Below, piece by piece: positions 1-62,906 of a stretch of DNA of 64,000 nt. The stretch spans positions 118,730,001-118,794,000 of the forward strand of contig OZ296648.1 in NCBI GenBank assembly GCA_965655095.1. The letters are read 5' to 3'. Within the stretch, counting starts at the first letter, position 1. Every line of letters starts with the position of its first letter. The stretch comes from Haplodiscus bocki (lineage: Eukaryota). The notes beneath the pieces are model-generated. The model searched no databases. It was given only the letters and a program-made list of their open reading frames with translations, and was not told where the DNA came from. Made by a program: the position numbers and the translations under genes.

Positions 1-675
1 ATGCAGACAAAGTGGCTAAATAGAACAATGGTGTTAAATACCTTCTTGTCACTCTTGATGTATTATCACGAAAACTCAGCCAATGCGAACTAAGGGTGCG
101 GACGAAACTGCTAAAACTTTTGGTCGCTTGATCACCAAAACTAAGCCATTGAAAGTATGGTCTGATGAAGGAAGCGAGTTCAAAGCTTTCAGAAAGTTCT
201 ATGAAAGCGAAGGCATTGGCATCTACACCACAAACAGTAAAGCGAAATCGGCATTTGCAGAGCGCAATTTTCGATGTGTCATAACATCATCTACAAACCT
301 TTGGAGCATAAATGGTCTTATCGCTACATAAACGAATTGCAGTCTTCCGTTAGCACAATCAATTCTCGAATCAATCGCGTAACATCATTGGCACCGAACA
401 AGGTCTCGGCGGAGCATGTAACAATCTTGGTTTCACGAACAGCTCAACAGTCGAGTAAACTGGTCAGAAAACCAAACTTGAAACCAGGAGACGTAGTTCC
501 AATAGCGAAGGATGATATAACGTTCAAAAAACGGTTCAAACAACATTTCACTGACGAAGCCTTCCAGATTACCAAACTTGCAACCTTCAACCGACCAACT
601 TGTATGCTGGTTCATTCTAAAAGAGAAAACATTCAGGGGATGTCTTACGAGCCAGAGTTGACAGAAACTCGGTAG
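1..675 (+). pseudogene. Retroviral-like (rve, c-integrase) DDE integrase of Maverick 1
   Basis: Fragments NNGVKYLLVTLDVLSRK, KVWSDEGSEFK, KSAFAERN, YINELQSSVSTINSR and LKPGDVVPIAKDDITFKKRFKQHFTDEAFQI match the Polinton integrase core and C-terminus; frameshifted. Confidence 0.92.
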
Positions 676-677
676 AA

Positions 678-1535
678 ATGGATTAGTTTGACATATATTT
701 AGAGTCAACCGGTTCAATGCGAAATTGTCGACAAAACTAAATGGCATGCTTTCGCAACGTGCTCGCAGAACCTTTACAACTAGGCGGAGATTATAGAGTG
801 GCTTTGGCAGAAATAATTTTCCTTACAAGTGTCAAGAATGTTACCACCAGAGTACTTCGTATAGTTACCGAAAACTCCTTTCCATAATTCACCATCAACT
901 GGCAATACAAGCTCAGGAGGCGTAATGTTGAAACGTGAAGATTGATCAAACAATGCAACTTTTCCTGATGGTGACTACAAAACTGTCAAGGCTGTTGTCA
1001 CGCGCTTACATGTTGCGGTTGCTAAGAGCACGAGGCCCATTGTTACTTCTGGCACTGAAGAAAACTGTGTGGATTTCAACTTTGCAGATGATTATGGAAT
1101 AAGTCTTGGTGACAGAAGTCCGTTCGGTGTATTAGGGTTCAAGGGAGTGCCGGAGCCCAACCGAGGTGGGCGTTTCATTGGTAACACTGACAAAGTGAAG
1201 AAGCAAACACAACCAATGAAGGGCGATTATCCGGCAGATATTACAGCAGGAACCAGCATTTTCTTCGTTAACTGTAATATCATCGAATGCCAGCAAATAG
1301 CTGGATTTAAAGCACCTGTTCTCCGTCTCCTTGATACAGAAAAACGCCTAACAAACCGTAACCTACAAATCAAGTCTGCAACGAAACATAAGTCGTTTCT
1401 AGAAATGCAGTTTTGAAAAGCTATTTTTGGACACAATCAGGGAGATATTTATTCAATTAGTTGGTGTCTGGAGACTACTTCCCATTTGTTGGAACCGGTC
1501 GTGTTGCTATAACATTGAAATTCCGCAAGCTCTAA
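678..1535 (+). pseudogene. Minor capsid protein (penton) of Maverick 1
   Basis: N-terminal MD*FDIYLESTGS...FRNVLAEPLQLGGDYRVALAEIIF and C-terminal YPADITAGTSIFFVNCNIIECQQIAGFKAPVLRLL...LPFVGTGRVAITLKFRK are typical of Polinton pentons; position is directly after the integrase. Confidence 0.85.
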
Positions 1536-1537
1536 AA

Positions 1538-1911
1538 ATGCAGTATTACTATTCCCGGCAAGCTGTCTCGCCTGAATTTTCGGGCCACACGAGAGAGGAA
1601 GCGGTTTAGGATCCTTAGCCGCCGTAGTTGGACTTTTAGCGTTACCTTTTGCAAAAAAAGTTCTATCAGCTGTCAAATCAATAAGGAAGGAATACTTTGT
1701 TCAAAGTTTGCCAGAATTGATGGATGTTGCCACCAAAAAAAGTCTCCCAAACAAACAGCAAAAATCAGCTGTCAAAAGAACAGTGAAAAAGCAAATCGGA
1801 GGAGGTGCAGTTGTCAAAAAGAGTACACATGTAAAAGGAAACCGTCGACGAAAAAAGAAGCTACAGAGAAATCGGTCAAATTTCTTTTCACGATTAAAAA
1901 ATATTACATAA
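1538..1911 (+). pseudogene. Small basic Maverick protein (putative core/virion protein)
   Basis: Starts MQYYYSRQ, then (frameshift) RGSGLGSLAAVVG..LPFAKKVL and a K/R-rich tail with QIGGG; located between penton and major capsid as in other Polintons. Confidence 0.65.
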
Positions 1912-3192
1912 TATTTTACCTGTTGAAGCATCACACGTATCATTTGATATTTTTGAGCGTCCCCATCTTTTGATTACCTTCAATACATCATTGGAGCAGA
2001 AAATTGGTCCAGTAAATGATCCAAATAGACCAACAATGAAGTTCCAAGTGGTGGAGATCGAACCAATTTCATCGATCTACAGAACATCTATCTCGAATTG
2101 AAATGTGGGATTCTTTGACCTAATGGTTACATACGATGCAAATAATGCTGCGGCAATTGATTCACCATTCTTTGTTAATAATTCTCTATATTCTCTTGAC
2201 TGTGAGTGTAGTATTACTGCGAATGGCATCAAAGTCTCTGCTAATAGCTATTACGCTCGAAAGGCTTTCATTGAAAAAGAATTTTCACACAACGAAGAAC
2301 CGAAAGATACTTGGTTGAATTGTCGGATTTTGCTATGAAGAGCAGCATGCTGACTTTACTAAAAACATTTTTCACTACAAGGACAGCTGAAACGTGGTGT
2401 CCGCAGAGGTCTCTTCCAGTGGAAGAATTGCGTCGGACTTTTTCTGATGTGACAAACACCTGATAAGTTGAGTTCCACTGAGAATTTCGTTCCCCAGAGA
2501 TCGACTTGACTATGCAATAATTGTTACGATGATGAAAAAAATTAAAATCGAGATTATACCAGTCAGTTTGTACGTTCGAAAAATGTCAGTAGGTGACAAC
2601 GTTTACTCAGCTATTGAGACTATAGTAACTAAAACATCTCCTCTTTACCGTTATATTGAGATCATACTCAAAACGATTCTCAATTGCACAGGGGTGCTGA
2701 GTTGAGGTCACGAAGATGTATTCACCAGGGAGTCCATTCCATGGTTTGCAATAGCTATGACAACAAACAAGGCCTTTCTGGGAGCCAAACGCGGATATCT
2801 TTTCCTTTTCGAGAATCTCAATCTGAACAGCCTTGCAATTTATCGTATTTGTTATCCTGTTGCCTGAACTCCACTCCAAGCAAAGAGTGATAAGAAACTC
2901 TACCTTGATTCACTCGAAGCTCTAGGTTTCGGAAAGATGGTCATGGAGTTCCTTATAGCGACTATGCTGATCACTGTATTTCAGTTTTCGACCTAACTAG
3001 CACACAACAAGCATCCCATGATTATCTTTACCCACAACTTACAAATAGTTCCCTTTCTATTAGCTTAAAGCTTTCAGGACAACTAACAAACAGTGTAGAA
3101 GTAAGTGAACGGTCTTCTACTATTTACATTGACTCTTGTCGAAGTTTTCCAGGAATATCTTCTTGAACACAAAGCTTGAAACCAAGCGTTGA
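1905..3192 (+). pseudogene. Major capsid protein (double jelly-roll, hexon-like) of Maverick 1
   Basis: ASHVSFDIF...FQVVGDRTNFIDLQNIYLEL, FVNNSLYSL..ECSITANG, YARKAFIEKEFSH, SLYVRKM, VFDLTSTQQASHDYLYP, ERSSTIYID motifs across frames. Confidence 0.88.
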
Positions 3193-3690
3193 TGGATAGT
3201 ACCACAATTTTACAACAGATTACGAGTTATAGCTACTTGAGACATAGATTCGTGGGGGTATTCTCTGCAGATACATTTCCTATACCGCAACGAGAACACT
3301 TTCATTTTTGTGAACTCCGAAATTTCTGATGAGGAAAGAAAGCATTGGCTCTTAACATGTAACAAAGGCGGAATCTACCTTTTCGTTGACCCGTTGGGCT
3401 TACGTCTGAATGCGTTAACCAACAAGCGCCTAACCTATGCAGATTTCAGTTGTGAAGAACTAATTCAAAAACCTCTCCAACCGTCTTCATCGAACTTATG
3501 TGGACTTTATTGTACATACATTGCTCATTATGTTTTCAGTGGTTACTACCCTGTAATGCCGCTAATCGATGATGAACGCTATTCAAGATTTATAAAAATT
3601 TTAAAGTTTATTTTTATGTTCGCTCCCGTTGAATTTACGAAGTTTTCAATATCTTTTTTTTTCAATAGTTTTCAATATCTTTGCTTTTGA
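3192..3690 (+). pseudogene. Adenain-like cysteine protease of Maverick 1
   Basis: FVGVFSAD, VNS...KHW...LFVDPLG...LQPSSSNLCGLYC: His/Asp/Gln/Cys arrangement of Polinton/adenovirus-type proteases; one frameshift near 3300. Confidence 0.9.
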
Positions 3691-5956: not shown

Positions 5957-8317
5957 AATATATTTTGTTTGATGAAAACATTCATGATTGTCTTCTACAT
6001 TTTCTGATATTCCACAGAAATTTTTTATATATATATTTTTTAATTCCCCAGCGTGACTATTTTCCAATTTGAGGATTAATAGTGTAAAAGCAGTCAGTCT
6101 TAGTCCTCCGCTAAAACAAAAAAATGCAAGCACTCAGGCGTAATTTACAATAAGCGGATGGCAGTTAAATCAGCATAAACACTTCAAATAAATCGTTCGT
6201 ATGAAGCTGGTCATAGAAGAGTAGCAAAAGTGGCCATCAAAAAACAAAAACCATCAGTAAATGTTGTCGTTCGAACAAATAAGAACGAGAGGTATTTGTT
6301 TTGCCATCAAGATGAAAGACGCTATCATAAACATTCAGAACTTCTTCAATAGTTACGCATTTGATGACATGACCTACTACCCTCTAGCGTAAGTCAACAA
6401 AACGGACGATTGTAAACAAAAGGGGAAACAAAAGGTTTTTCAATTTCAGTTCAGTAAGCTCAGCAGCGCAAAAAAAAATGATAAACTGTGATATTGGCAG
6501 CAGAACTTCTAACAAGCGAAACTTATTTCGGCATCTCCGCAATTTTCATTACATTCAAAGGTCGAAGTCAGAGCAGAGAAATTACATGGAATGTCTTTTC
6601 AAAAGTTCCCCTTTCACAGTGGTGAAAAAACACGTTGAAGAAATCATAATACATGAAGCGGATACTGCATTTTTTGCAAGAGTCTCTTCTGTGATACAAA
6701 AACTTTCAATAAACACTTTCAAGAATTTACTTCGTTGTCTCCAGTTACACGAAGCCAAATTTCGTAACGCAAACTACCTCAAGCTTCTGCTTTCGGTGGT
6801 ACAGTGCAGACCTACTTCTTGGAAGCGGACGACGATTAAGATTTCCTACAGTTCATGGTAAACCGGAAGCAATTTTTTTGAGATTGTAGAGGAAGCAGTT
6901 CAAGCAGAACCGAAAAAAGTGCAGCTATCAGCGAAAGTCAAATTGGAAGAACCCGCCTTTGAAGATGAAGACACCACTGATCTCACGATTCACGTGATTC
7001 TCATAATGGAAACAGTCTACTTGGGTGAGACTCACAGAGGAAGCTTTTTTCACTATGTTGGTCAATTATTATCGAGTCTGTTCAGTTTTACTTCCCATGT
7101 AAGTTGGTGCGTGCTGAAAGAGATCAATGGTCTTTACGTAAAACTCGTTTCCCACATGCCAATGCGAGGGTCATCCTACCTTGCACTGCCAAGTGACTTT
7201 CAATGTTTGAATCGCCTGTTCAACGTAAGGAATCGGGATGATAACAATTGCTTCCTTTATTGTTACGTGGTAGCGTGGCAATTAGTTTATGCTCAGAGTC
7301 TGAATGAAAATGTGGGTCGGCGAATGAGAACAAACCCAGAAACGTATTCTCCTTCTAATGGATTGTCACATGAACCAGTTGGTGATTTCGAAATGCAGAT
7401 GGCTTTCAACCAAATTCCAAGGTTTGAAAGCCTGAACAATTTTCGAGTACCATATTGCGTTGTCAAAGGAAAGATCTCATTCCACTGCGATTATCGAAAC
7501 GACAGGAATTACCATTCATCTTAGACCTTCTTCTTCTTAGCGATGGTCAAGCGTACCATTATGTTTTGATCAAAAATTTTATTCAGCGATTTGAACCAAC
7601 AAGTTCCACGATCCAGTATCAAAAAATGCCTTGATTGCTTTCATATTTGCTACAAAGCTGAAATTTACGAACGGCATGTTCAGACTTGCATGCTAAACGA
7701 AGCAGCCACTATAAAACTACCAGACGAAACGAAAAACGACCTACAATTTCAAAATAACCAGTCCAGGTAGTTCGCACCTTTTGTTATGTATTTTGACTTC
7801 GGGTTGCTTATCAAACCTGTAGGAACATGTTCCAACACTTCTGATAAATTCAAACAAGTTTATAGAGAGACAATAACCTTGTGGAATATGCTTCGTTGTT
7901 ATCGAGCACAACAATCCTGAACCTGTCTTTTTCAAAATGGAAAGATTTTGTATTTATATGCAAAGTTCTGTTGAAAACTTGCGAAAGCATTTATGAAATG
8001 AAGCGGCTACATCGAAAGTACAAAGGATGACCTCAGTTTCGTTCCGATCAGTGCTAGTTTTGTGAAAAAGAGAATTAGCTGAAGGCGACAGAGTTTTTGA
8101 TCACTGTCATGCCGGCGGAAAGTTCTTGGTTTTCGGACACAGTGAATGCAACCTTAAATGGGGCACAGTAAACTACATTCCGATATTCGCTCTTAATCTT
8201 TCGAATTATGATTTAAATTTTATTTGCAAAAATCAACACCTTTCCCAGAAAAAAGTAAAATACAAGTTATTCATAGAATCGATGAAAAATACTTTTGGCC
8301 TTCGATTGGTATTAAAG

Positions 8318-8763
8318 TTGTGTCTTATACCGACAGTGGAGGCGTTGGAAAACATGTCTCTGAATATTTGTTTCGTCGGTTTTTATAGATTTATGGTTTC
8401 ATCTCTGGACAAACTGGTGATTTAGTTACTTGCAGAGAACTTCAGTTGATTGGATAACCACTTTCCTCAACATTGTTCTGAAGACTTGCATCAAAAGGGA
8501 TTTTATCCCTACTATTCTTTCGATTCGCAAGAGAAATTCATTGTGCCTTATACCGACAGTGGAGGCGTTGAAAAACATGTCTCTGATTATTTGTTTTTTC
8601 GGTTTTTATAGATATATGCTTTCATCTCTGGACAAACTGGTGATTTAGTTACTTGCAGAGAACTTCAGTTGATTGGATAACCACTTTCCTCAACATTGTT
8701 CCGAAGACTTGCATCAAAAGGGATTTTATCCCTACTATTCTTTCGATTCGCAAGAGAAATTCA
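8318..8763 (+). repeat. Tandem duplication, 2 x 223 bp, inside PolB
   Basis: 8318-8540 and 8541-8763 are colinear with about 8 mismatches; paired ORFs both end SSLDKLVI*. Confidence 0.95.
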
Positions 8764-9910
8764 AGAAAAATCCTTGCCCAGTGTAAAAAAATGGACGAAC
8801 TCCCTCCAAGATGGTCAGGTGTCATTTAGTCCAGAGTATTTTCAACATGCAACAAAAGTTTCGCAAAAGTTGGGGTGCGAAACTCTCGATGATTACCACG
8901 ATCTTTTCCTAACAACGGACACTTTGCTACTTGCATGTGTGGAGGAGCAATTTCGAAAAGTTGCTTACTCTACTTACGGATTGGATAGTGCTCACTATTA
9001 CACGTGTTCTGATCTTTCGGGCGATGCTTTCCTAAAAGTTAGTGAGGCAAGAGTGGAATTGCTCACAGACCGTAGTCATTTGGAGATGGCTGAGAACTTG
9101 ATCAGACGGGGCGTCTCCTCAGTGTTTTCAAAGCGCTTGGCTACAATGAACAACAAATACCTGGAATGATTTGACGAGACAAAACCAACAACATATGGTC
9201 TCCTCTTGAATGCAAATAACCTTTATGGTGGAAATATTCAAAAATTTCCACTTCCTTTGAGTGAGTTTGAGATCGTGGATGTTGAACTCAGCTCAATTCT
9301 ATTGACTGCGAATGACTCAGGAATTGGCTTCGTGTTAGAAGTCGATTTGGACTATCCTGATGACCTTCACACTAAGCGCGAAGACTTTGCACTGGCTCCA
9401 ACCAAGGATAAAATTGATCGGATTATGCTGTCCAAGTATCAGATGGGCCCATTGGACCAGGCAGGCATTAGATGCTTGTACAGACTTTATTCGCGAAGAA
9501 AAATTACACGTTTCATTACCTTCTACGTGGATCTCGGTCTCAAAGTTAGTAAAGTACATCGAGTCCTTCAATTCAAACAGAAGCGGCTGGAGCCGTACGT
9601 CAACTTGAACACCAGAATGCAAATCGAGTCAAAGAACAAGTTCGAAGAGTCATTTTGTAAGCTGATGGACATTATTTCTGTGGAAAAACTTCCAAAGAAG
9701 CGAAACGGGGTCAACGTGACACTAATGAAAACAAGAGAAGCTGTCCTTGATAACTCCAACAAAGGTTTGATGAAATCAATCAATATATTCGATGAAAGCC
9801 TGGTAGCAATTACAAGAAGTAGAGGACAAATTTACTGGAATACGCCAACACTCGTGGCCGCTTGAATATTCGATCCCGCCAAGTTCCATTTGTATGATTT
9901 CCATTACAAG

Positions 9911-10086
9911 GTAAGCATAACATAACAAAATCGGGACCTCTAAAACGAAGTGACCGGTCTATTTTGCACATATATAGTTTGAATCGAATATCCTTAGGTG
10001 TCCAAACGAAATGACAAAAACGTTCGGAAGCCGACGGTAGGGTTTTCAAAAGGGTCTCATTTGAATAAAAATTCTTTTGTTTTCAG
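9911..10086 (+). other. Spliceosomal GT-AG intron (176 nt, phase 0) in Maverick PolB
   Basis: AAG|GTAAGC donor and TTCTTTTGTTTTCAG|GTA acceptor; removal restores the frame and the conserved KFHLYDFHYK-VMKKTFDCSLLFSDTDS segment. Confidence 0.85.
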
Positions 10087-11129
10087 GTAATGAAGAAGAC
10101 GTTCGACTGCTCGCTTTTGTTTTCAGACACTGATTCGCTATTCTATGAGATCAGAAGACAGAATTGCTATGAGAAAATAGCGAACAACCCCATGTTACAA
10201 AACGATTTCGATTGTCCTAATTTTCCAGTTGCCAACCTTCTTCATTGTGACACGAACAAGATGAACACACTCAAAGATGAGATGGCAGAGAAAGTCTTCC
10301 AAGAATTCGTTGGTATCGAAACCAAGATGTACCCAATAGCTAATGAGAACCAGCAAAAGATGTCGGCAACAGGCGTATCTCGATTCGCTGAAACTTCACT
10401 GAAACTTGATGTATACCAGCGTGTTCTGCTAAGTGGTCACCACATGAGATCTAAAGATTTCGCTCTTCAGAACATCTCCTTCAAACCATTTGAAACAAGA
10501 AAATATCATTGAATGCTTTTGATTACAAGCGTTCCTTAGAGAACGATTGCATTCATTGTCTTCCTTTCGGCCACTTCATAATAAGAGACTGGCAAGTGCG
10601 TAGAGCAATCCTTGAGATGATGACTGTGGAGATAAAGAGCGACAAGAAACCCCAGAAAGTAGTCCAACTGAAAGAAGCAACCATCAAGTTGAAACGCATG
10701 TCTGCCGAGAGATATTCACCCTTCCTGACCCTGGCATGCGTCAATGAGTTTACTCGGAAATTGAACTTGAAGAAGTCATTGACCTCGATGAAGAAACAAC
10801 ATCATTTTCAACTCCTAGACAAAGAAACCCTTTGTTTAACGACGGAGCCGAAATAGATTCCTTTAGGGACTTTGATTCAGACTACGAGGATGTAACAATC
10901 TTTTCTAGTATCTCAAATGACCTTTCACTGCCCAGATCCCCCGCTCTTTTTGATGCTCCCCAGCCCAAGAAAAGAGTTGTGTTAGTTTCAAGTGATATCG
11001 AATAAATATTGATGGTAGAAAAGAATTCGCGCAAAGTACTATGCAAACGTTTCATTCATAAACGTTGAACAAAATCTTGAGGCCTTTTCACGTAGATAAT
11101 ATTTCCCCACCCCCTGGAACTGAGCCTTT

Positions 11130-11690
11130 AAAGAAAGCCTCTGCAAAAGTGATAAAAAAAATAGCCCCTGCCAAAGAGCGCACGAAAAAAGCGCCTGAGA
11201 AGGCGCACGGAAAAAACTCTCGCGAAAAAGCGCCCGGAAAAAGCCCCGCGAAAGAACGCACGGAGAAAGCCCCTCGCAGAAGAGCACACGGAAAACAACC
11301 CCGCGATAAAGCGCACTGAAAAAACGACGGAAAAATCCCCCGCAAAAGAGTGCACAGAAAAAGCCGCCGCGAAAGATCGCACAGAGAAAGCCCCCGCGAA
11401 AGAGCGCATGGAAAAAGACTCTGCAGAAGAGCGCAAGGAAAAAGCCGCTTCGAAAGAGCGCACGTCGAAAGCCCCCGCGAAAGAGCGCTTGGAAAAAGCT
11501 CTGGTGAATTAGCGCACGGAAAAGCCGCTGCGAACGAGAGCACGCTAGAAGCCCTTGCAAAAGAGCGCACGGAAAAAGCCCTCGCGAAAGAGCGCACGGA
11601 AAAAGCTCCCGCGAAAGAGCACACGAAAAATGCACCCGCGAAATAGCGCACCAAAGAAACCCACGCTAAAGAGCGCATAGAAAAAGCTGT
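11130..11690 (+). repeat. 27-bp minisatellite (~20 copies), consensus GCGAAAGAGCGCACGGAAAAAGCCCCC
   Basis: Directly visible periodicity; one frame reads AKERTEKAP repeats; explains the cluster of overlapping ORFs on both strands. Confidence 0.92.
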
Positions 11691-12454
11691 TCACGGTCAC
11701 GGACTCTTTCGAATCACCATTGGGTAACAACATGAGAAAAACTGAAAGCCTGCTCTGGACCTATCTTAATCTACCGACACTTTGAGGAGAAGGTTCGAAG
11801 AAAAAACAATGGAAAAGTTCAGGCCTTACACAGCACCTTTCGAGTCATTGCCTGTACAAGATCCCCAGGTTAATACCGGTATACTGTGCGGTTCCGGAAA
11901 CACCACAAGGGTGACTTTTGGTAGCAAAGACCTGCCTTTTTTTCGTAAGCGTACCGACGCACCTAAAAAGAAGTTGATAATTACGTGGCACTAATTCTTG
12001 ACAGCAATCTTATAATTATCGTCAAAAAAATATTAAAAGAGAGCTGGCCTTTGTTCAAAGCTTTGGTAAAAGTCCAAGCTGTTCATTGCTTGCTAAAGCG
12101 TTGCATGGGGGCCATTAGATCCTCGAAGTTCACTTAGTCGAACCTTAATATAAGATCTTCTCTATTTCGCTCAACGTTTGCTCCCTCTGGAATGGACAAT
12201 TTTCAGTCTTTGGTTAGTCACGACCTCAAAATATATTGAGTTTTAGGTTCTGCTTTATAGAAAATTTGAAGATGTTTCAATCTTGGCAGTTTTTTTCATG
12301 TGTTGAATGCGCTATCTTTTAGTAAAAACAAACGGTATATACTTCATTTGCTTCGATAATAAAATAACAGCCGCCAGACAGAAACACGAAACAAAAATTA
12401 ATGCAAAGTTCACAACGAAACACCAGCCTTTAGACAAAGTGAGTTCAAAAGCGA

Positions 12455-13230
12455 CTAACTTCAAGTTTTTGCAGAGCTTTGTACAGTGCACAAGTTTAAT
12501 GAAGACCGTTTGTGGTCTCCCTGAACATTTAGAACGCAGTCCTTGATTCCTGATAACTTGAAAACATTTTTAGCCAGGGGCGGTCCTTCCGTACCAATTC
12601 CTTGGGGCGAAGGATTGATGAAGACTTTGATGTGTCCACATCTTCCTCTGATCCTGAACGGAGCAGTACTGATATTTTTGTATCCCCAGCTACCCCTCGC
12701 CAAGCGGAATTTTTTCAGAAAGGCTACAATAGTTGGACTGCTTACAGCCTGCGCTTGTGTCTTCCGGGTTTAATGACTCATGCCGATCAGTCCCTCCTCA
12801 GCTCTGACTGCCACAATGGCTTGGTATCCTACTCGCGGTCTTCCATTACCAGTCACGCTGCACTGCTAGTGTCTTCAGAATATCTTCGCGGTAACCTGCA
12901 AACAATGAAGAATCAATAGAACGGAAGTTCGTCATAAGGAGCGCCTCCATTCCATGCCGCTCTTATATTTGGGGTGGGGAGCAGCATTTTGTCGCAAGGT
13001 GCTTATGGTATATGAAACTTGTGTTTTTTTTTCAACCATCATCAGTAACCGTAACCTTGGGATCTCTATGGCTGCATAAAACTATACTTCAACATGGCTT
13101 CACAATCCCATTATTCTATATGCCCTCAAAATTAAACCTCTTATTAGTTGAAGGCAAAAGTTTAACTTACCCAGCATTCTTTTTTTCTGGAGATAACTGA
13201 AATCGATTCTTGATTTTTCTGCTTTCTGGA
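12455..13230 (-). pseudogene. Divergent ribosomal protein uS5 (RPS2)-like gene, copy 1, with a putative intron at 12896-13170
   Basis: Minus strand: YREDILKTLAVQ/VTGNGRPRVGYQAIVAVRAEEGLIGMSH*TRKTQAQAVSSPTIVAFLKKFRLARGSWGYKNISTAPFRIRGRCGHIKVFINPSPQGIGTEGPPLAKNVFKLSGIKDC aligns by eye with eukaryotic uS5 (DEVLKIMPVQK..RFKAFVAIGD..G..G...VRRGYWG...TVPCKVTGRCG....PAPRGTG......AGI.DC). G|GTAAGT donor at 13170 and TTGCAG acceptor at 12896. Confidence 0.75.
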
Positions 13231-16200
13231 ACTATTGGCAGTAGTTGTAGTGATGAGTAGTTGTATTTGAACTGCTTGATTTTTTGTCTGAGTCTTCCTC
13301 CACTGATAATCCATTGTTCTGAGTAGCTAGATTTGACGTTTAAATTATTTAAAAGTTAGGTTAGAAGTGCTGGCAATAGTGTGTACATATCGACTTCAAA
13401 GAAGAAGCGCATTCCAATAGAGTGAGATTAGCAGAAACGGTGATGGACGCTTGTTCTTCGCTTAGGTCGATTAGTGATCAAACTTGAAATGCCAGCAGTC
13501 TAGCCTTGGCTACATGTATATATTGTTCACGAGCCAAGATTCCACCGCGAAGTACGTTTTGGTTTAGGGATTCTTCCACAGAAAGGTTGAAATGATCTTA
13601 GGATTGACCGCGAGAAATCTTGTGAATCCCTATACTACTCGTACCACTTACTTAATTGAGCTAAAACTTAAACGATTTCCTTAAATTTTGCTAAGGTCGC
13701 CCGACTTGTCGCTTTTGAGCCTACCTTTTCCAATTGTTTGCTCAGAGTTCCACGAAACGAATACCAAACTATACTATCGCATTTTTAAGGAACAATTTGT
13801 AAATTGTCGTGTATTTAGTGTACAAAATAGCTGACTTTAGAACGTGTGCTCGTTTGGTTCAAGAATAATTGTTTGTTAGCATACAAGAATAAATGGCAAA
13901 CATTGCGAGGATTTTTTCTGAACTTTGAGAATCGTTGAAATTGGACCGCGTTCAAGTGTCTCAACGTAGTCCAAACGTTGCTATTCTCCTGATTTTCCCG
14001 AAGTTTTTGGATTTTTAAATTCTATTTCAACTTTTTAGCTGCGTTTTTGAACCAGTACAATACAGAAACCAAATTACTGGTGACTACCGTTTATTTCCGC
14101 TACAGTACTCCTTGTAACTTTTTCATTAGCCTAAAGGATGTATTTTGACGCCACAAGTTATGCTGAAAGTACCAAATATCGCATTCTTCCTTTATCCTCC
14201 GTTTGCCTTTCACTTACTTTTCGACAAGTTCGGCAAATCAATAGAGAACGGAAGCAAAAATGTAGCGCGCTACAGCAGGAAGTTCCAATTTTGTTGAGTT
14301 TTGGTTTTCGGTGCGTTTGTTCGATATAGATATTTTGTTCGACTTTTGCCGTAGTTCCGGTCTCCCGCCTTCTTTTTCTGCTTTTTGGCTATACTTACAA
14401 TAAAAGCATTATGAGAGGACATATTTTGCACCTTTCCAGAAAAGCTTCAACTTTTTCGCTATGAATGGTCGATTTTATTGGTTTTTGATAATAAATTTAG
14501 CAGGTTTTGCAATTTTTCCTTTTGCCTTCCCAATTAGGTACGCCTCAACCGAAATCAAATAGAAATTGCTTATTTTGAGAAGTTGCTGGCACTTAAAATT
14601 GTATCCGATAGTGTGAAATCGCAGTTGCTACTGCTCTAAGCAAATTTGTTAAATTCAGTTTTTACACCACATTTGTTTCCGACCAAACAGAGCATCTTCG
14701 CTCACCAGGGTGCTGTTGTTTTGTGTGCTGTTGAACGAAAAACTAAAACCTTTATATGTACGAGATGCACATTTTTCATAAATACATTTTTTTTGCTGTT
14801 TTTGAAAGAAAATTGGAAATGAAAGTCTGTCAAATTTCAACTGACGAATGAGTATCAATTCATTTGGTTAGTTTAGGAAAATTCGCAATGTTCTGACAAG
14901 CCTTTTTCCGGTAATGATCGATCGTGCTGCTACGAGTTCTCGAAATACTGAAGGAATTTGAGTGGCTAGCTTTGTGTAGGCCCGCTTCACCTCTTTGTGA
15001 GCGAATGAACCCGAGTATATCAGTATGTACTTCTTAACGTATTTATCAAACCCTCACTTTCGGATAAACTTACTAAACTTACAAATTTTTTCATGCTTTG
15101 TTCGGCTGCTCACTTCCACATCCCTCACTCAATTGTGCTTCTAAAAATCCTACCTGATTGTTAAAAGTTGAATTATTCCAATTGAGTGGAAGAATTCCCC
15201 AATGAAGGTCATTTTCACTAGCAAAAATTGCTTTACTTGCTCGCTTTACTTGTTTTGTTGGGTAACTATAAAGGGGATAAACCAGTTAGCGGGAATTTAA
15301 AATTCAATAGCGTCTTGTTGGTTCGGGGTTTCGCCCAATTTACATTACTAGACCGGGGTTGGGGCCTCGTGCCGAGACCTTTAGTGACACATACAAAACT
15401 GTAGTCAGTCAGCATGATCTCTTGAACCTCTTGATTCGGCTAAATTTTGCATGTGACCCTGAATCGATGACACAAGCAACTCAGCCTGCTGGCATTTTGG
15501 CTAAAGATTCGTTCTTTCATTGAGAATTTTGAATTATTGTACCTGATTTTATTATTTTTTCGAAAAAACTTTGATTTACAGTCAAAAATCTCTGGAATGA
15601 ATTGTTTTTGACGGTCGGTCATGAAGTGAGCTGGAAACCTGTGTTCCGTGGCCGTCCCGTTGCAAGAAATTTGATTGTCTCATTTTATGAAAAAGATATC
15701 TCATTTCGACTTTTTCGAAAATTTTCACCGGAGAAGTTTCGGCAATAAGATTACAAAAGCTCAATTATCTCTTGAATTTTCCGTCCTAAGTTTAATTGAG
15801 CGTTAAGAAGTGAAGCACATAGTCTTTTCGGCTGCTTTTTGTCAGAAAAATTTTGACGATTTTTTTTCAGTGATAAGTTTGATCACTTTTGCCAAAATGT
15901 TGGGGCAATTAACTTTTCCAATTAAAAATTTTCCAAGTATTTTTTGAAGGCAACACAAGTTGTTTTCGGGAATTCATTTTTCAGCTTTGGTTTTTTCCCG
16001 AAATCGCGTCCGTCAAAAGCCTAAAGAAGTAGGTCCCACTCGCTCTTCAGCTCAATTGAAGCCATCTGTAATTTTTTTCCTTTTTTTCGTGCTCTTTCTC
16101 AATTTTTTCAGTCTAATTCTGGAGTATGCTATACATTTCATTTGCATTCTTGTTCGGTTTTATTTCAACGCAATAAAAGGTTCTGGTGCCATTTGTATGT

Positions 16201-22300: not shown

Positions 22301-25300
22301 GTGAGTTGAGTTTGAACGTATCAATATTCACGGCTTCTATCTGCAAGTTTTCTGTTTTCGATGTCTCACTGAATGATGTTTTAGAAACGGCGTTTTGAGA
22401 CAGTCTATTTCTACATGCGAAGTCTGGCAGCCCAGGAAGATTTCAAAGGTAATTATTATTGTATCATCACTGCATTGTCTGTAATGGATAAATTTGAGCG
22501 GTAAAACATATTGGCGAAATAATTCGCAAAGCGCTTTTATTATTATGCGATTTTGACCATTTTCCAAAAAAGATCACTTTACTTAGCATTGCCACATACT
22601 TCAAGGTCTATCGTTGGACATTGAAATATACTGGGTGTACGACTGATTATTGAAGTTTTACTATGGAACCAAAAAAGGGGCAGAATTTCGGTATCAAGTT
22701 AAATTTTTATGACTTCAAAATAAAGCAATTGAAACCACTGAATTGATCCTTTGTTGTAGAAATAGTAACAAGCCAATTTTTTATTACAAATTCTGACTGG
22801 AAGGAAGGATGTGAATTGGAACCGGCTTATCTCCAGTTTTTTATCCTGTCCAAAACTTGCATTTCTTGACGTCATCAGATAGTCGTGTTCTTGTGAAAAC
22901 AGTCGAAAATGAACATTTTGAGACATTTGACAGGTATTTGTTTACTTTAACGTTCTAAAATTTACTATTATGTTGTCACCTTGTTCTGAAAAAGTGAACA
23001 ACAGCGTCCTAAAAGATCATGTTTGACTGGGAATATTTTGAATACCGACAATGTGGCAGCCCTAGTTGAACTTGCATGAAAATTTTGCCTGTTGTATTAA
23101 TGCATGCTGGAATATTTTTTTCACAAAGCATAAAAAATTCAGGGATCTTGTGTGGAGAAATCGTACAAAATTTCCATGCAATATGCAGAATTTGCATGCA
23201 ACATATTAACAAAACATATCACTTCATTTTTTAGGCGAGCGGAGCGAAGCCTGTTAGCACAAGGACACGTCAAAATGATTTCGTTTTTTTTTCCCGTCCG
23301 TGACATCCCTCCGCGTTTCATCTCTTTACATCTTATTTTCTCGGCACCTTTTGGTCAGATTTATCCGATTTTTGTCTTAACACTACGATGGTTTCTCGAT
23401 TTAGCTTATTGCAAATTTTCGGTCGGCAGATTTTTTTCGGCGTGTTTTTAGCGATAAAAATTTCATTTTTCGGATTTTTTAGAGGGCAGAAGAGATATTT
23501 TTGAGTCTTGTCTGTACAGGAAACTTGGAAATGCTGAAGTTTTTGCATTAATCGATGAAGCACCATTCAGTTGAGACCAATTTTTTTCGGCCAGTTTTCG
23601 TCAAAAAACCGGAATTTTTTCGAAACAGATTTGACATTGCCCACTACGTTTCGTAACTTTGACGCTCATTTTCTACGAACGCATTTGTAGGATCCGTTTG
23701 CTTATTGCCAAGCTGTATTGGCAACTTCGTAATTGACCGGGTTCGAAATTTTTGGTGTACGAAACTTCTTCGCGAGCGAGTTTCTGGCGAAAGCAATTGA
23801 AAACCCAGGTTTTTTCAGAGGGCAAGTTATACTTTGTCGAACTTCCTTGGCCTATTATCCCATATATGGCTTCCCAATGCTGGTTAGGAGATGGAACATT
23901 ATGCGTAAGTTGCATTTAATTTCTAACCGAAAGTTTTCTTATTTTTCCACAAGATTTTGACCGAATTTTTCCGGAAGAAAATTGGTTTTTCAAGTTACTT
24001 CCTGCATTATCTCAAGTTTTGTGCGTTCAGCATGCCTCAAAGTTATGCCTATCACCTGAATTGAGGAATAGAATAAGCAATGTGTACAACAGTGGGTTTT
24101 GATGCAAGTTTGGGCTCCGAAAGTTTTCAAGAAATAAGATTCCTTCAAGACTTGTCGACTCTAGAGAGTTTTTATCCTGCTGTACAAACAATAAAAGTAT
24201 ACAGGGCTTCGTGATGCTCATTGCATTGACTGGAGAAGCAGTGGAGAGCTTGTCAGGGTACGCTCAGTCGTAGATAGGTGGTCTGGACAAGGTACTCTAG
24301 ATGTTGAACATTTAAAAAAAATTCCCTTTGCGATGATTTACTGCGACTCTCATCACCTGGAAAAATGTCTCGAGTGTCTCCTAATAACCCTCTGCATCTG
24401 CTCACTGCTTTTGTAACCTTTGGGCTGCGCGAAATTTTTTGGTCGAGCTTTCTGAGAACACCTATCGGGAAAACACGGCTTTTTGGATAGATTTTTATTT
24501 CCAGATTCGTATTTGTTCACTTAACGCCCTAGTTGTCAACGTCTGGAACCTTGCTGCTCTGAGATGGCTTTTGCCAAACAGCGGCTGGCTTTTGCTGACT
24601 TTGAGATGACAAAATATTCTGTTCCAGCTAAATTCTTTTAGAAGTTAGGTTAGTTATCTCAAACTGCTCTTATCTCGATTGGTTGGTGTCTGTCTAATCT
24701 CTCCGGATTTTGCTACATGCTCTATGGCATTCCATAGGCATGTGGCCAGCGGTGTAATCAAGAGTTTGAGTACCTTCACGAGCCTCGCGCTATGAGCACC
24801 TTAGCGCCTATGTTTTCAATACTCTACTTCACATCATCAAAGTAGCACTAGCTATTTGTGACCTCTCCACAAACTGTCAGAAGTAACAAAAACCATCGAA
24901 AGATTGTAATTATGGTCTATGATTACGGTCTCAATTTGGTAATACAAGTTTTGAGCCTGCAACATTTTATTCTCTTATTTTTTTCTGATAGTTTTGTTTT
25001 TCTGTCAAAACTTCGCTCAGAGATTGCTAAAATGTCCTATTTTGACCCAGAGAAACATATATCGCATATGAAACCTTTCAGTGGCACAATAGGAAATCCG
25101 TGAAATGAATAAATGATCACAATGAAAAAATTTTGATTGCACTTAATATTTAGAATTGTGGTTGAAATTTTTCTCATGCTACATGGAAACTTCTGTAGAA
25201 ATTCAAATTTGTCTGCTGCATTCAGATTTTGCATGTTGCACGGAAAAATTTTTGTACAAGTTCACTTGCAGCAGTGAAATTTTCATGCATAAAAAATTTT

Positions 25301-43300: not shown

Positions 43301-46300
43301 CAGTAACAAAGAGTATGTAGCTCTGGTGTTAAATGATGACTTTGGAGTCAGCTTCAATGACTGCAGTTTTTTTGATGTCTTATAATTTAATGGTGTACCC
43401 GACAAGCATCGAAAAGGAGCCTATTTTTTGGAGTAATCATAGCGAATACGGTAAACAGACTCAACCAATCACAAATGATTAACCTCCAGATCTGACAGCG
43501 GGGACAGCATGTTTGTTGCAAACACCAACCTCATTGAACAAGAACATGTTGCGGGTGTGAACTCGCCATCACTGAGAATCATTGATACCCACAGAATACT
43601 GTCGAATGGTAAACTAGAAGTGACCTCTTCGGTTTCCATGTTCTTCATTCAGACACTGATTCGCTGCCATATGAAATGAGAGTTGCTGCCACTACATTGA
43701 TTCTTCGCCTATATTTTGACATTTCAAACTACCCAGAAAACCTTTATCTATACAATAGTGACAATAAAATGGTGACGCTGAATTTGGACTCGTCCCGATA
43801 GAATTTATTGGACTGCAGGCTAAACTCTTTTCGATACTGACCCATGAAAAGCAAATGATTTCCATTAAAAAAATTAGTTTGCGCAAAAAAATTTATTACA
43901 TGAAAAATACAAGGAAGTAACATTAACTGGTCAATCGTTCCGTACTATAAACACCAAAATCAGATCAAAGAAACACCAGTCGCACACAATACGTTACAAC
44001 AAGCTGTCACTCCCTACTTTGATGATGACGTTTTATTTTGATTGATGGTATTACTTGTCTTCCCTTCGGACATCATGGATATCGAGATGCTAACATCCAC
44101 CGTGAAATACTTGCTGATAGTGACTGCGGAGGAGATGGTTTACCATACAGCCCCACTTGGATTGAAATGAGGCAACCTTCCACCTGATCAATTAACAACT
44201 CCGAACTCTAATGCTGAAGAAGCAACCAGATTTTCGGACGAGAATTTGGATGAAATTATAGGTTAGACTTCACCGGACCCCTGATTTACTCAAAAAAGTT
44301 ACTGAGACTCAGTTGAATGATGAATTTTCACACTTTCATGCGGAAAGTGAAATAGAATCACCCCACTCGAGGAACACTTTAATCGATGATGAAGTTCAAG
44401 ATACTGATTGGGAAGCAGCAAGTGTCGTTCATCTTGGTTCGAGTGAGAGCGAAGACATACCCATCTACAGTGAAGATGATAAAAACTGGAGGACTTGGAA
44501 CGATATTTAGACTATGGCCATTCGAATGCCGATAAAGAAAGTTCAAACGAGAGATCGAGAATTGATTCGTCGACTACTGACAGCGAACTCAACAAGATTG
44601 TCCATGCTTGTGAGCTGTTATAATACTCTTAAGTTCATTTTTATTGTTCTTGAGCTGGTTCAAGTGGTTTAGTTGTTTTGTGAAAATATAACATTGGATG
44701 GAACTTCATTACCTGCTCCTCAGCCGATGAAAAGATTTTCAGATTTCGTCGTTTCTAGAGAAAGTTTGATCCTTTTACCAAGTTATGTTTGCCAACGGCG
44801 TGACTAAACAATCGAAGACTCCAAAGATGTAGGCATATACTAGTTACATTCGATCAATCTTTCCATACATAGATGCCTACAGTAAGCCAAAACAAGCTAA
44901 AACTAAAAATATCTTCTTATACTAGGTCTGATGATCACTCGTTATCAATATTGATGCCTCGAGTAAGCCAAAACAACCTAAGAGCCCAGATATGCCTGCC
45001 TATACTATGTACATTGCATAAATAGTTCAATATTTTGATGCCCATCATGAGCCAAAACAACCTAAATTTCCAAGTATGTATGCCTATGTTTGGTATATTG
45101 CCTCAATCTTTCACTATTTAGATGCCTATAGTGAGCCAAAACAATCTCACAGTGCAAAAGTATATGACTGTTCTAGGTATAATCCATCAATCGCTTACAA
45201 TATAGATGCCTATTGTAAGCCAAAACAACCTAAGAGCCCAAATATGTTTGCCTATCCTAGGTATATTGCGTCAATGTTTCAAAACATAGATGCCTATAAA
45301 AAGCCGAAACAACCTAAGAGTTCAAATCTGTTCGCCTATACTGTGTATTATCCGTGAATCTTTCAATATATAGGCACCTATAGTAGTCCAAATCAACCTA
45401 AGTGTCCAAATATGTATGCCTATATTAGGTATATTCCATCAATGTTTCACTATATGAATGCCTACAGTGGACTAAAACTATCCAAAAGTCCAAATAATCC
45501 TTGCTTTATAAAAATTTTTGTGCCAATCTTTCATTACATGAATGTCTACTTCTGAAAAATATTACAAGAGTTCAAATATTTCACCCCTGAAAAAGTAACT
45601 CCCTTGAATCTTTACAAATCACTGAACAAAATTCCACTGTACCGCGTTTTCTTTTAATAAGTTCATTGCTAGCTGGATGAAGGAGCGCGAGATCGGCGCG
45701 AGAAGCATGCCAGTTTTTTGCAACAGCTTTTGTTTTTTTTTCTCGGTGGCTCTTGTTTTGTACTGATGCCGTTGTTTTCGTGAGAAAAGCATCATTCGGG
45801 AACCTACTAAGACACTTGTCAGAGAAATATTTTGAGCAACTAGGAATACAATTGAACCTGTCAGGGGACTAAGAACACCAAAACCGCGACGACACCGCAA
45901 AGACGATCAAACAAACACACATTCTAATGTAAAGTTCCAGTTGCAAAGGCAATTTTGCAAGAGTTTCAGTTGCAAACTATTGATAAATACGAATTAGCTG
46001 AAACATACCAAAAGTCTCTCAACGCCTTTGATGGCAGCAAAGAGTGGAAAAGCTAAACTGAATGAATAGTCACTCATTGTTGATGGTGTTAGCGAGACAC
46101 AATCTTGAACTCCTGCTGATTTCAACACAACTTTGGTCAAGCACGAAGTTTGAAGACCTGTACGTCGCGCGGCGGGACATAGCTTGATTGTGAGGTCATC
46201 GTGACAACCATGCATTTCCTGTTCTAAAGTTTTGTTGGACCCTGGTATTACATCAAAACAGGCCACGTTAATTTCGATAATGTTCGTTTCTGCACTTGCG

Positions 46301-49300
46301 GTAGCCTTTGCAATGCCATTTGTTCCGTTTTATCAGTTGTGGAACCGAGACCAATTTTTCCTCTGCAGTTGCCCACAGAAGCAACAGCTCTATAGCGGCG
46401 CCGTTTACCTGACTTTTTTTTCTGTTTCCAGACAGATCATTTTAACTATCTCAGTATTCAAAATGTCCTCAGATTTTGGGGATTTTCGACGCTGGAGTTG
46501 GGGTCATAAGAGATTCATATTTCAGAAAGCCAACTCTACTTTGATCTCTCCTGCATTGACTTTTCAAAGAATCCATCGACATACACATTTTTTGTTCTTC
46601 TTAAAACGTTTTCAGTCCTTCGTTGAAGCAAACCGGGAAAAGGGCAATTCAGCGCCACGCGTAAGGCCTGAGACCTCAATGGGCGTATCATCAAGGTTTG
46701 AGAGTCAGCTATCTCATCGGTAATTGGTTTGCCCATAAAAGTATTTGCAAGCGCCATGAAAGTTTTCAGGAGTGTTGAAGGAATTCAACATTGACCATTT
46801 AAATTTGCAGTTGGTGGCCTATATATACGATATCGAATACAAATTTTGATTTTGAAATGCTTAACAGACATTTTTCAAGATTTCAATGATGAAAGAATCA
46901 GCGTTCGACGATAGTTTTTAGTTTGAACTTCAAAACTGAAAATTCGGCGGGGGAGAATTTGCTCAATCATGGATGTGTTCGCTAACCTCGGAAGTTGCTT
47001 TGGATTTTGAAGATCTACTTTGCTGTAGCAGAAAGATTAGGCATTAGATGGAGTTATTTGAATTCATGTCAAATAGATCATTCAGATCCGACTGAATTGG
47101 CACCAAGATACTCTATTATTGATTGATGGATGTCAAACCGCCTATCGTTTGAATAACGTATCTATTCGACTTATAGCCGCGACCGAATTGTTGGAGAAGC
47201 ATACTTCATTTGAAAAAGATCAAAGCAGCTTACAAAATGAAGTAGTAACGGAGAAAAATTAGTTCACTCGAAAAGGTTTTTTTGCCGATTCTTCGTGAAT
47301 TCCGACAGAATCATTACATCGCTTTTGAAGCAACTATTAATTATCCAAACCTGGTAAAGGGGTAATTCAACTCTTACTTTATTTTCCGTGAAGGGAAAAG
47401 TTGGATGTTGTTTTCCCGCAAATAAAAGGAAAACCCCTTCGAACTGAGGACGCAAAAATAACCCGAAAAATATTACGAGCTGCGGCTATAAAACAAATAA
47501 AGACGTTAATACTAAAAACAATTGTAATCATATGATAAAATGCATGCGTTCTGTTACGAAAATGGATAATATCTATCCGAAATTCTCATGGTTAACTGTT
47601 AAACTTTTTTCGATCGTTCTTCACTAGACGATTTGCAGGATGGAGAGAATTTTTAAAAATGATTGAAAAGTAACTTTTTAGAACAATTGTTCAATTTCTT
47701 GCTTTCAGAAAAGAAACTTAAAAGGCAGATGGCGCGTTTGTCAATTAATTTTTCTCTAACAAATTGAGGGAAGATTCTTGAATAGATATTTTTATCGTTT
47801 AGTTCTACGCCGAATATGCTGCGAAGATGACTGAAGATAGCGCCAAAATCTGTATTTTAAGCATGGTTTTTTCTTCACCCACTACTCATATCTTGATGTA
47901 TGAGATAAAAGCTTATTGTTTTGCTTTTTCATTAAGTCAGACTGTAGAAAAGCTCTGGCACCTTTTCAGTACACCTCTTCTTTTTTCTTTTGAGTGAAGG
48001 AATTGTAGCAAGAGGCAAAAGATTTCAAGCGAGAGAGCCTGACTAAAATTCGGTAGTTCTTGATTGAGTTCGATTTTAAAAAATGAAATAGTTTAAAAAA
48101 TAGTTCTTGGAAAGAAACGGATACCGGTAGATAGTTTAATTGAAATGGAATTAAGTGATCGCTAGTTTCGAAGCCAATGGCATGACAATTGATCGACTTC
48201 TTGCTTCCCTAAAAGTCAATCCGCTACGTTTCAAGAAACAGAAAAGTAATCATTTCCAAAATATTTTATACTTGAATGTACCTCGTAGTCGGAGTAGCTC
48301 GGTAGTCGAATGGTTGAATACTCCGACTTAGCCGAAAGCGTACGTACGCACTGGATCAAATCCAGGGAAAACGAAAAATTTCATCAAAATTTGAATCGGG
48401 GATTTGGGCGTAGGTAGACCACGTTAATAGCGCCACTCCTAATATTCTTCAACCAAAAATTGAAAGTTTTTATCAATAACAGGGTGTCTTCTGATAGCGT
48501 TATAATGTTAAGCGATCTCAAGTTGAGTATCAAAAATTGGTTTTCGTTCGTTTTGGTATAATCAGTACTTTGTAGTTGTTTTGATAGCTGTCACAGGTAG
48601 TGCAATGTGTGTCGCGAGTGTCTGTGAAGCACAGATTCGCTTCTGTGTCATACTTGTCATGAGCATATGTCTTGGAATCCGGATAATACGTCTTTTTTAT
48701 ACCTTATGACTGCAAATTTCTGCTATTCCGGCAGTTTTGCTACAGAACAAAGTTTTTTCATGCCGTGCTCTCAATTGACGTCGTTGGTACAATTGAGAAA
48801 TGAAATCAATTTGTTTTACTTCGACTAGTACATCTATGATTATACTTGCGCAATCAAGTAATAAATCACAGGCTTCTAATCTTTTTTCTCCCGATCATTC
48901 ACCACTTGCACAATTTACTAGATTTCGACCAAAGAGAGGGGGAGTGTCATGCGCTCGAAATTGCGTCCTTCCGTGTCGCACTCGCATACTCTACTGACTG
49001 CCGTTGCCTCTTGGGAATCAGTATTATCACTTGAAATACCAGGGAATGAATTTTTGTGGCGTTTCTTACTTGTATGTAAATGTAGATTATTTAACCGAGT
49101 GCCTTTGGACTTGTTGTCTTTGTTATCTTGGCCGCTTCAAAACTCTTTATTTTGAATGGACTTATTCACTAGTATTCCGTTGGACGAAGTGTTGCGAAGC
49201 GCAGCTTCGCCTCTATGTAAATTTTTTCCTTTCTTCGTTGAAACTCTTCTTGCGCACTAAGTAATGGGAGAATTCAGTCCATCTACAACTCTTTGAACAC

Positions 49301-62394: not shown

Positions 62395-62906
62395 CTGAAG
62401 GGGGACTCAGCGTTTTTAAAGCTCAAAAACCCGAAAAACAGTATCGCTTAGAAATTTGTTGAAATTATTATGTATTTTTGTTTCATCATCGGGCCGACAT
62501 TGCGAAATTGCGACTTGCATTTTTGAAATTTGCAGCACTTGAAGTAACCATAAACTAACCCTGTTTTGAATTTCTCACACTAATTACGTCGGTCTTGATC
62601 CCCGAAGCCACGTAATTGCGTTTTCATGAAAAATGCATTCATTTTTTGATCAAAAATTGCAGCATTCAAGTATTAAGGTCAGGTTTCGTTTTCAAGTGAC
62701 CCCAAAGTGTTGAACTTCGGCAAAGTTGGTTTCTCGCAAGAATGGAAAACTCGCAGAAAGGTTATGGGAAATATTCAAAGGCACAAAAATGTCCCGACAC
62801 TTTTCTCTGCATCTTTTATGATTACCAAGATTTTCGAAAAGATCCAAAATTATAACGACAATCATAACTTATCGAATATTTGTCCAGTGTGAAAACAAAA
62901 ACAAAA

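Follow-up and report, generated by a model that had tools for sequence, protein, structure and literature searches.

A uS5-like (RPS2-like) gene is carried by Maverick elements in the genome of Haplodiscus bocki. We analyzed a stretch of 64,000 nucleotides (contig OZ296648.1, positions 118,730,001 to 118,794,000; hereafter the window, numbered from its first letter), in which a reading made from the sequence alone (the sequence-only reading) had noticed a decayed uS5-like gene beside a Maverick and had taken it for cargo of the element. Cargo it is, not as a one-off capture but as the occupant of a fixed slot that is exchanged among elements and holds many, apparently selected, types. We give about an even chance to the reading that the product of this selected, exchangeable cargo mimics host uS5 in trimmed form and targets the 40S pathway.

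Element 1, its uS5-like relic and other repeats of the window

The features of the window used in this analysis are listed below.

1..672, plus strand, decayed RVE integrase, 3' part (PF00665 on young copy)
621..1529, plus strand, decayed putative minor capsid protein (presumed label)
1898..3189, plus strand, decayed putative major capsid protein (presumed label)
3109..3603, plus strand, decayed putative protease (presumed from position and motifs)
6433..10729, plus strand, decayed protein-primed PolB (tblastn with PolB of young copy, itself matching PF03175)
11134..11688, unstranded, 27-bp-unit tandem array, adjoining the cassette in family members, with Lys/Arg/Ala-rich frames
11916..13351, unstranded, variable slot for the cassette, bounded by the repeat array and the conserved sub-terminal region
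12445..12895, minus strand, uS5-like exon 2 (S5 N- and C-domain core) with two frameshifts and one in-frame stop
12896..13170, minus strand, predicted GT-AG intron, phase 1, matched in place and phase by introns of types T4 and T7
13171..13177, minus strand, probable first uS5-like coding exon of 7 bases, ATG at 13177
13352..13639, unstranded, conserved right sub-terminal region, closing with the TIR (about 72 bp, 13569-13639; ...TACTACT)
13640..13645, unstranded, 6-bp target-site duplication, same as the 6 bases before the left end
46027..46597, minus strand, second, more distant uS5-like relic, in another Maverick family (element about 39980-47000)

Element 1 is 17,978 bp long, its left end lying 4,339 bases upstream of the window and its right end at 13639, and it is flanked by a perfect 6-bp target duplication (TSD). 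Its terminal inverted repeats (TIRs) match over 59 bp at 81%, with ends AGT...ACT. The right end had been missing from the sequence-only reading, which had proposed to seek it in sibling copies; it was located by that route and is common to ten loci, the window included. Among ten other loci checked, both ends were found in nine (17.7-20.8 kb), eight of which carry a perfect TSD. The TIR of full-length family copies is about 72 bp, which is short for Mavericks/Polintons. The shared terminus lies about 0.6-1.0 kb past the S5 match with the gene inside, so that siblings neither end before 12.4 kb nor lack the gene, and membership in the element, formerly a surmise, now rests on a TSD-bounded unit. 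Since the gene sits inside this unit and the host RPS2 is an ordinary gene on another contig, a host gene adjoining the element was ruled out.

The backbone of element 1 is 80-88% identical to a young copy, in which a Pfam scan identified PolB (PF03175, E 3e-15), RVE integrase (PF00665, E 3e-9) and an A32-like packaging ATPase (PF04665, E 2.6e-4, just under the cut-off); the ATPase relic of element 1 lies upstream of the window. The frames at 1898..3189 and 621..1529, putatively the major and minor capsid proteins, and that at 3109..3603, a putative protease by its position and motifs, are decayed. These frames are of fitting size and order; the putative protease and major capsid frames gave no Pfam or PDB match, and the putative minor capsid frame gave no match in Pfam.

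Several further observations were made on the elements themselves. A 223-bp tandem duplication (96%) lies at 8318-8763 within the PolB relic, and in a young element a short GT-AG intron (L041:6912-6961) appears to split PolB near its C-terminal part; the core genes of nematode Mavericks are described as intronless (bioRxiv 2022.07.12.499685). The 27-bp array differs in length among copies, the shortest measuring about 0.5 kb and the longest more than 3 kb (window 11134-11688; e.g. L037:7092-9192), and in several copies it is open in more than one frame, giving Lys/Arg/Ala-rich, histone-H1-like repeats. Near the left end of another copy, a small frame with a hydrophobic N-terminus (L057:2923-3228) shows a weak EGF-like match (E 0.004) and resembles a viral growth factor.

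The uS5-like relic itself runs from 13177 to 12445 on the minus strand within the Maverick and contains one intron. All of the uS5 hallmark motifs named in the sequence-only reading were found on this strand, and its intron candidate at 13170-12896 proved exact at both borders (GTAAGT...TTGCAG); two further, synonymously saturated gene types (T4 and T7) have counterparts at the same place and in the same phase. With X at the single stop, the stretch 12464-12865(-) matched Pfam Ribosomal_S5_C above the cut-off (E 1.2e-7), so the proposed search with S5 profiles succeeded for the C-domain, the only domain that the window copy gives. The same stretch matched 91 PDB sequences, the best being eukaryotic uS5 chains (E 1e-14) and the best 60 of the 91 all being eukaryotic or archaeal-type. 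The description of the gene as decayed was borne out by two frameshifts, one early in exon 2 (about 12876-12850) and the other near 12490, and by an in-frame TAA at 12772-12770, and the window copy is dead. Its natural stop probably lies at 12447-12445, so that the gene would extend ten bases past the boundary of 12455 first given. The strong divergence claimed for it is also real, with 30% identity to the host RPS2 over 108 aa; this identity, the gene's own intron and purifying selection are at odds with a processed RPS2 pseudogene, of which high identity to the host mRNA, no intron and neutral decay would be expected.

Element 2, whose ends were not recovered, carries its uS5 relic at about 46027-46597(-) in the same arrangement, as had been noticed before. 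An 84-bp-unit array (44806-45496) lies between its PolB and the uS5 relic, and the layout is that of element 1, but the array unit is unrelated to the 27-bp one. The window also holds an inverted pair of sequences (23712-24816 and 62898-64000) that are 98.8% identical, at least 1.1 kb long and separated by 38 kb; they probably represent a pair of young copies of some other element.

Linkage to Mavericks and exchange of cassettes

With the window protein as query, at least 149 uS5-like matches were obtained in the genome (among 150 scored of 229 candidates). Flanks were sampled for one or two members per tandem array plus the dispersed hits, giving 76 loci including the two of the window, and two host genes were left out. 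PolB lay 3' of the uS5 gene on the opposite strand in 55 of the 74 non-host loci and the right terminus lay 5' of it in 51, which answers, in the expected orientation, the earlier suggestion that genomic copies be mapped relative to PolB and TIRs. A Maverick core gene or terminus was present at 66 of the 74; six of the other eight had other Maverick sequence or belonged to an array that has it, and two (L121 and L134) had no Maverick mark. Among 20 control stretches at round coordinates, none had PolB, a terminus or an S5 match and one had any core match. Loose proximity is weak evidence here because a Maverick fragment also lies about 4 kb from the host RPS2, and the oriented counts are therefore the test. 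In a reverse DNA search, the 40 best right ends of 853 candidates fell at known uS5 loci or arrays in 29 cases and at new places in 11; nine of the new ones had a uS5 relic, the remaining two being interrupted by an insertion and by an assembly gap, respectively. Of another nine uS5 loci that came from other searches, eight had PolB close by. The slot is also present in element families whose PolB is 40-49% identical to that of the main family, element 2 included.

Tandem amplification of the right end was observed at C2:36.53-36.58 Mb (L154, L078, L150-L153), where a full element leads into a head-to-tail series of its right end in units of about 3 kb (cassette plus terminus), with 11 right termini in all and most uS5 frames broken. 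Like arrays occur at C6:2.23-2.31, C7:38.82-38.90 and C1:78.23-78.30 Mb, and arrays account for a large share of the matches.

Fourteen natural frames fell into at least seven types, with 22-53% identity between types and 25-42% to the host RPS2. A phase-1 intron after a first exon of one to two codons is common to T4, T5 (the type of the window) and T7, and T1, T2 and T3 have an ATG at the equivalent place. Contigs from four sequencing runs of one study, aligned to an intron-bearing copy, gave no GT..AG joint among the alignments listed, a result that does not bear on expression either way. The elements bearing T1 and T2 are each young (99.1-99.5% among closest copies) and are 96-98% identical to one another from the left end through PolB; T4 elements are 95-98% identical to the T1 backbone for two and 92-95% for a third. 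Despite this, T1 could be aligned with neither T2 nor T4 over a stretch of roughly 1.2-1.5 kb that runs from the array to the last 200-300 bases, which implies exchange of cassettes. Synonymous sites of the T1 and T2 genes are saturated (pS 0.77), so the types long predate the backbones on which they now sit. A swap by recombination in the flanking conserved blocks would be the simplest reading of this pattern.

Selection, protein structure and origin of the element uS5

Between types, pS averaged 0.76 and pN 0.46, and pS exceeded pN in 82 of 82 pairs, the pairs not being independent. The variants within types were then compared for five types with 36 distinct copies. Private variants comprised 472 non-synonymous or stop and 189 synonymous changes (ratio 0.78), suggesting near neutral decay after insertion, whereas variants shared by two or more copies comprised 43 and 41, respectively (ratio 0.33; shared vs private, Fisher p=2.6e-4). 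The lower ratio of shared variants, the excess of pS over pN between types and the conserved intron together argue that the protein is constrained in active lineages. Some within-type pairs gave dN/dS near 1, as is expected of dead copies. As judged by these comparisons, the uS5-like gene is under purifying selection, both between types and in shared variants.

Intact types encode about 145-165 aa, starting at about yeast-equivalent residue 76 (numbering taken from the ungapped end of the yeast match) and ending past the last core helix, and both the N-terminal extension of eukaryotic RPS2, which carries an NLS as well as the sites for chaperone binding, methylation and ubiquitylation, and its C-terminal tail are absent. 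Pfam S5 N- and C-domains were both above the cut-off in four of seven intact or near-intact types and the C-domain in all seven; the proteins have a pI of 9.0-11.6. Positions near-invariant in 14 cellular uS5 rows were scored in 15 element-type rows, where Gly/Pro/Ala were kept in 68%, basic residues in 29%, polar in 30% and hydrophobic in 24%. R95 was kept in 12 of 13 rows and R97 in 13 of 14, while G142, T153, P173 and A132 were kept in 15 of 15, and K82, D195 and N209 also stood out as retained; K99 (1 of 14), Y143 (2 of 15) and position 148 (0 of 15) were mostly changed. With Gly/Pro/Ala mostly retained and the other classes largely lost, the fold looks kept and the surfaces changed, a degree of surface change rarely tolerated by a working ribosomal protein.

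Structure prediction points to a two-domain uS5 fold for the element proteins. A model of T1 reached pLDDT 92.5 with a 50-row alignment, 30 rows of which were cellular eukaryotic uS5, and superposed on eukaryotic uS5 with TM 0.82 and rmsd 1.6 A, an agreement to be read with those cellular rows in mind; an element-only model (16-row alignment) contained both domains but set them apart (pTM 0.53, rmsd about 15.6 A).

Some of these positions have been characterized in cellular proteins. R95/R97/K99 of yeast uS5 form an internal importin-binding site, and its N-terminal extension, which is methylated, serves as a binding site for the chaperone Tsr4 (PMC13627120); the extension is also reported to block lethal mitochondrial import (as cited in PMC13627120 and PMC12707816). 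The yeast changes Y143C and L148S lower accuracy (PMC5303280), and ubiquitylation of human uS5 at K54/K58 is required for RNF10-driven 40S turnover (bioRxiv 2021.04.20.440649). In human numbering the element proteins begin near residue 102, past K54/K58, which they therefore lack.

Phylogenetic analysis placed 14 element-type rows in one clade (97/96) joined to eukaryotic uS5 (93/88), in a tree that used 30 of 62 rows and has long branches in play. The AU tests rejected none of three sister placements (host-like RPS2, p 0.057; host paralogue, 0.285; bacteria, 0.20). The eukaryotic/archaeal rather than mitochondrial type proposed in the sequence-only reading is thus favoured by the PDB matches and the tree, a eukaryotic type being the preferred assignment, but other placements are not rejected. 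The host RPS2 shares 90% identity with a member of a cluster that also contains Convolutriloba macropyga uS5, against 86% or less for named proteins and nearly all others listed, which makes an acoel host likely. A divergent multi-exon host paralogue (L077:1040-2480; C2:105.18 Mb), about 50-70% identical per exon to a relative's uS5, still has some of the N-terminal extension, and 20 residues are inserted after its 'RGNW'; no Maverick context was found at its locus, and it is a possible donor or sister of the element uS5.

Two word-based searches gave 10 and 23 clusters, some matching types of this genome and three being bacterial-like or ambiguous. One multi-copy clade, formed by P0124 and P0154-P0164, includes several clusters in which the 4-9 members lie on separate contigs. 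It reaches no more than 44% identity to the sequences scored in this genome and groups with type T6; on sequence grounds it likely comes from another genome. An IMG/VR match to P0124 covered just 16 residues and was discarded. BFVD gave no match at E<=0.001, and the ESM Atlas gave S5 clusters alone (scores 0.86-0.90). Eukaryotic-type RPS2 genes on contigs of bacterial genome records (L189-L201, L203) are probably contamination. A search for a uS4 partner returned one PF00163 match, which we take to be Imp3-like instead, and this candidate was rejected.

Proposed function, rival explanations and significance

A mimic directed at the 40S pathway is favoured because both domains, the basic surface and the internal import residues are kept and the regulatory extension is gone. 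The core of a eukaryotic RPS2 may have been captured once, long ago. The uS5-like gene would be transcribed and spliced by host machinery, and its product would enter the nucleus through the retained R95/R97 and bind the uS5 site of late pre-40S or 40S, competing with host uS5 while the element is active. Subunits or intermediates formed in this way would lack the chaperone, methylation and K54/K58 ubiquitylation sites, and host control of 40S turnover or translation might be bent in the element's favour. Cassettes would be swapped by recombination between the flanking conserved blocks, and old types could be maintained by conflict with the host or among elements. A bolder version, possible but doubtful, is that Mavericks build their own class of ribosome, in which host 40S subunits fitted with the trimmed uS5 no longer respond to the destruction signal of uS5 ubiquitylation and have an mRNA entry channel readjusted to element mRNAs; the swappable ancient types would then record an arms race fought over the ribosome, the first such case in an animal virus-like element.

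Other functions have to be weighed against the 40S mimic. The S5 fold may have been repurposed as a general nucleic-acid binder with no ribosome role, either a dsRNA shield against RNA silencing or a basic DNA-packing core protein, as the retained fold residues, altered canonical surfaces and strongly basic character would allow; its N-domain is a DRBM-like fold that viral RNase III and DRBM proteins match weakly (E 0.004-0.15), and the gene adjoins the Lys/Arg-rich repeat frame. We nevertheless consider this unlikely: both S5 domains occur in every intact type while a dsRNA shield needs just one, and a packing protein would not be expected to come in deep, exchanged types. Quite improbable, in our judgement, is a selfish toxin or exclusion factor, a uS5 without its avoidance segment that enters mitochondria or poisons assembly, with the types serving as incompatibility types among elements or hosts. 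Yeast uS5 deprived of the N-terminal avoidance segment goes to mitochondria and causes cell death (as cited in PMC12707816), that region is absent from all element proteins, a toxin has arisen from the cargo of nematode Mavericks (bioRxiv 2022.07.12.499685), and balancing selection fits old types on young backbones; but a first look at the frames of the 1.2-1.5 kb cassette showed no antidote candidate and one genome holds many intact copies.

The heavy change at canonical surface positions leaves room for either of these and argues against plain replacement, in which a fully working uS5 would boost the ribosome supply. That the predicted fold matches uS5 and that a giant virus encodes an eL40 84.6% identical to its host's (PMC11499249) speak for replacement, which is still highly unlikely given an identity of merely 25-42% to the host RPS2 and the loss of both extension and tail. 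Scarcely credible, finally, is a functionless RPS2 pseudogene hitch-hiking in the element. Most copies, the window's included, are broken and private variants are near neutral (0.78), but the frames are open across seven types with saturated synonymous sites, shared variants stand at 0.33, the intron is conserved and the slot is maintained across families with PolB 40-49% identical; the between-type excess of pS over pN and the shared-variant ratio appear to have largely refuted this reading already.

Both cargo slots in Mavericks and virus-encoded ribosomal proteins are known kinds. Cargo of nematode Mavericks includes WASP/wosp proteases and KRMA kinases (bioRxiv 10.1101/2022.07.12.499685), carried as intron-bearing genes in a variable, poorly conserved sub-terminal region and exchanged among elements as here; as described there, that slot adjoins the left TIR and holds proteases or kinases, whereas ours adjoins the right TIR and nearly always holds one ribosomal-protein family, and 'ribosom' is absent from the text of that report. 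The eL40 of giant virus FloV-SA2, a late 60S protein of 53 aa, 84.6% identical to that of the host, comes from the protist-infecting Nucleocytoviricota (PMC11499249) and likewise shows a eukaryotic DNA virus lineage encoding a ribosomal protein, but the present case is a trimmed 40S core protein, about 30-40% identical to the host's, in many types and in integrated animal elements of 18-20 kb. Phage bS21 (PMC6375957; discussed in PMC11499249) offers mobile elements with ribosomal proteins proposed to replace the host's; those hosts are bacterial, and here replacement is a rival reading. Cellular uS5/RPS2 (PF00333 + PF03719) shares both domains, the predicted fold, the RG-x-W motif and R95/R97 with the element proteins, which differ in lacking the Arg/Gly-rich N-terminal extension and the C-terminal tail, in a loop after W that is two residues shorter and in far faster evolution.

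Poxvirus K3L is a trimmed, fast-evolving eIF2-alpha mimic near the genome end, and poxvirus gene accordions amplify in tandem. The element gene resembles these in being, as proposed here, a trimmed mimic of a translation component, near an end, fast evolving and amplified in tandem, but our tandem arrays may be post-insertion duplications and the target of mimicry is a proposal.

A literature search, with most subscription papers, Repbase and supplements outside its scope, found no published ribosomal protein in a Maverick/Polinton, and a term search of the accessible text of a 2026 review of viral ribosome control found neither 'Polinton' nor 'uS5' (PMC13712778). A 2024 paper presented eL40 as the first ribosomal protein of a eukaryotic virus, earlier cases being only an antisense S30 fragment in an animal retrovirus (PMC11499249). 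Ribosomal proteins are thus nearly absent from eukaryotic viruses, and here an animal virus-like element appears to keep one under selection in many exchangeable versions. The protein in question, uS5, belongs to the 40S core, where it is located at the mRNA entry channel and controls accuracy. Its natural variants are on offer for testing ideas on specialised ribosomes and 40S quality control. The cassettes are also a clear example of modular alleles being exchanged among Mavericks, and they advise caution, since apparent 'RPS2 expansions' in genomes of this kind can be cargo of mobile elements.
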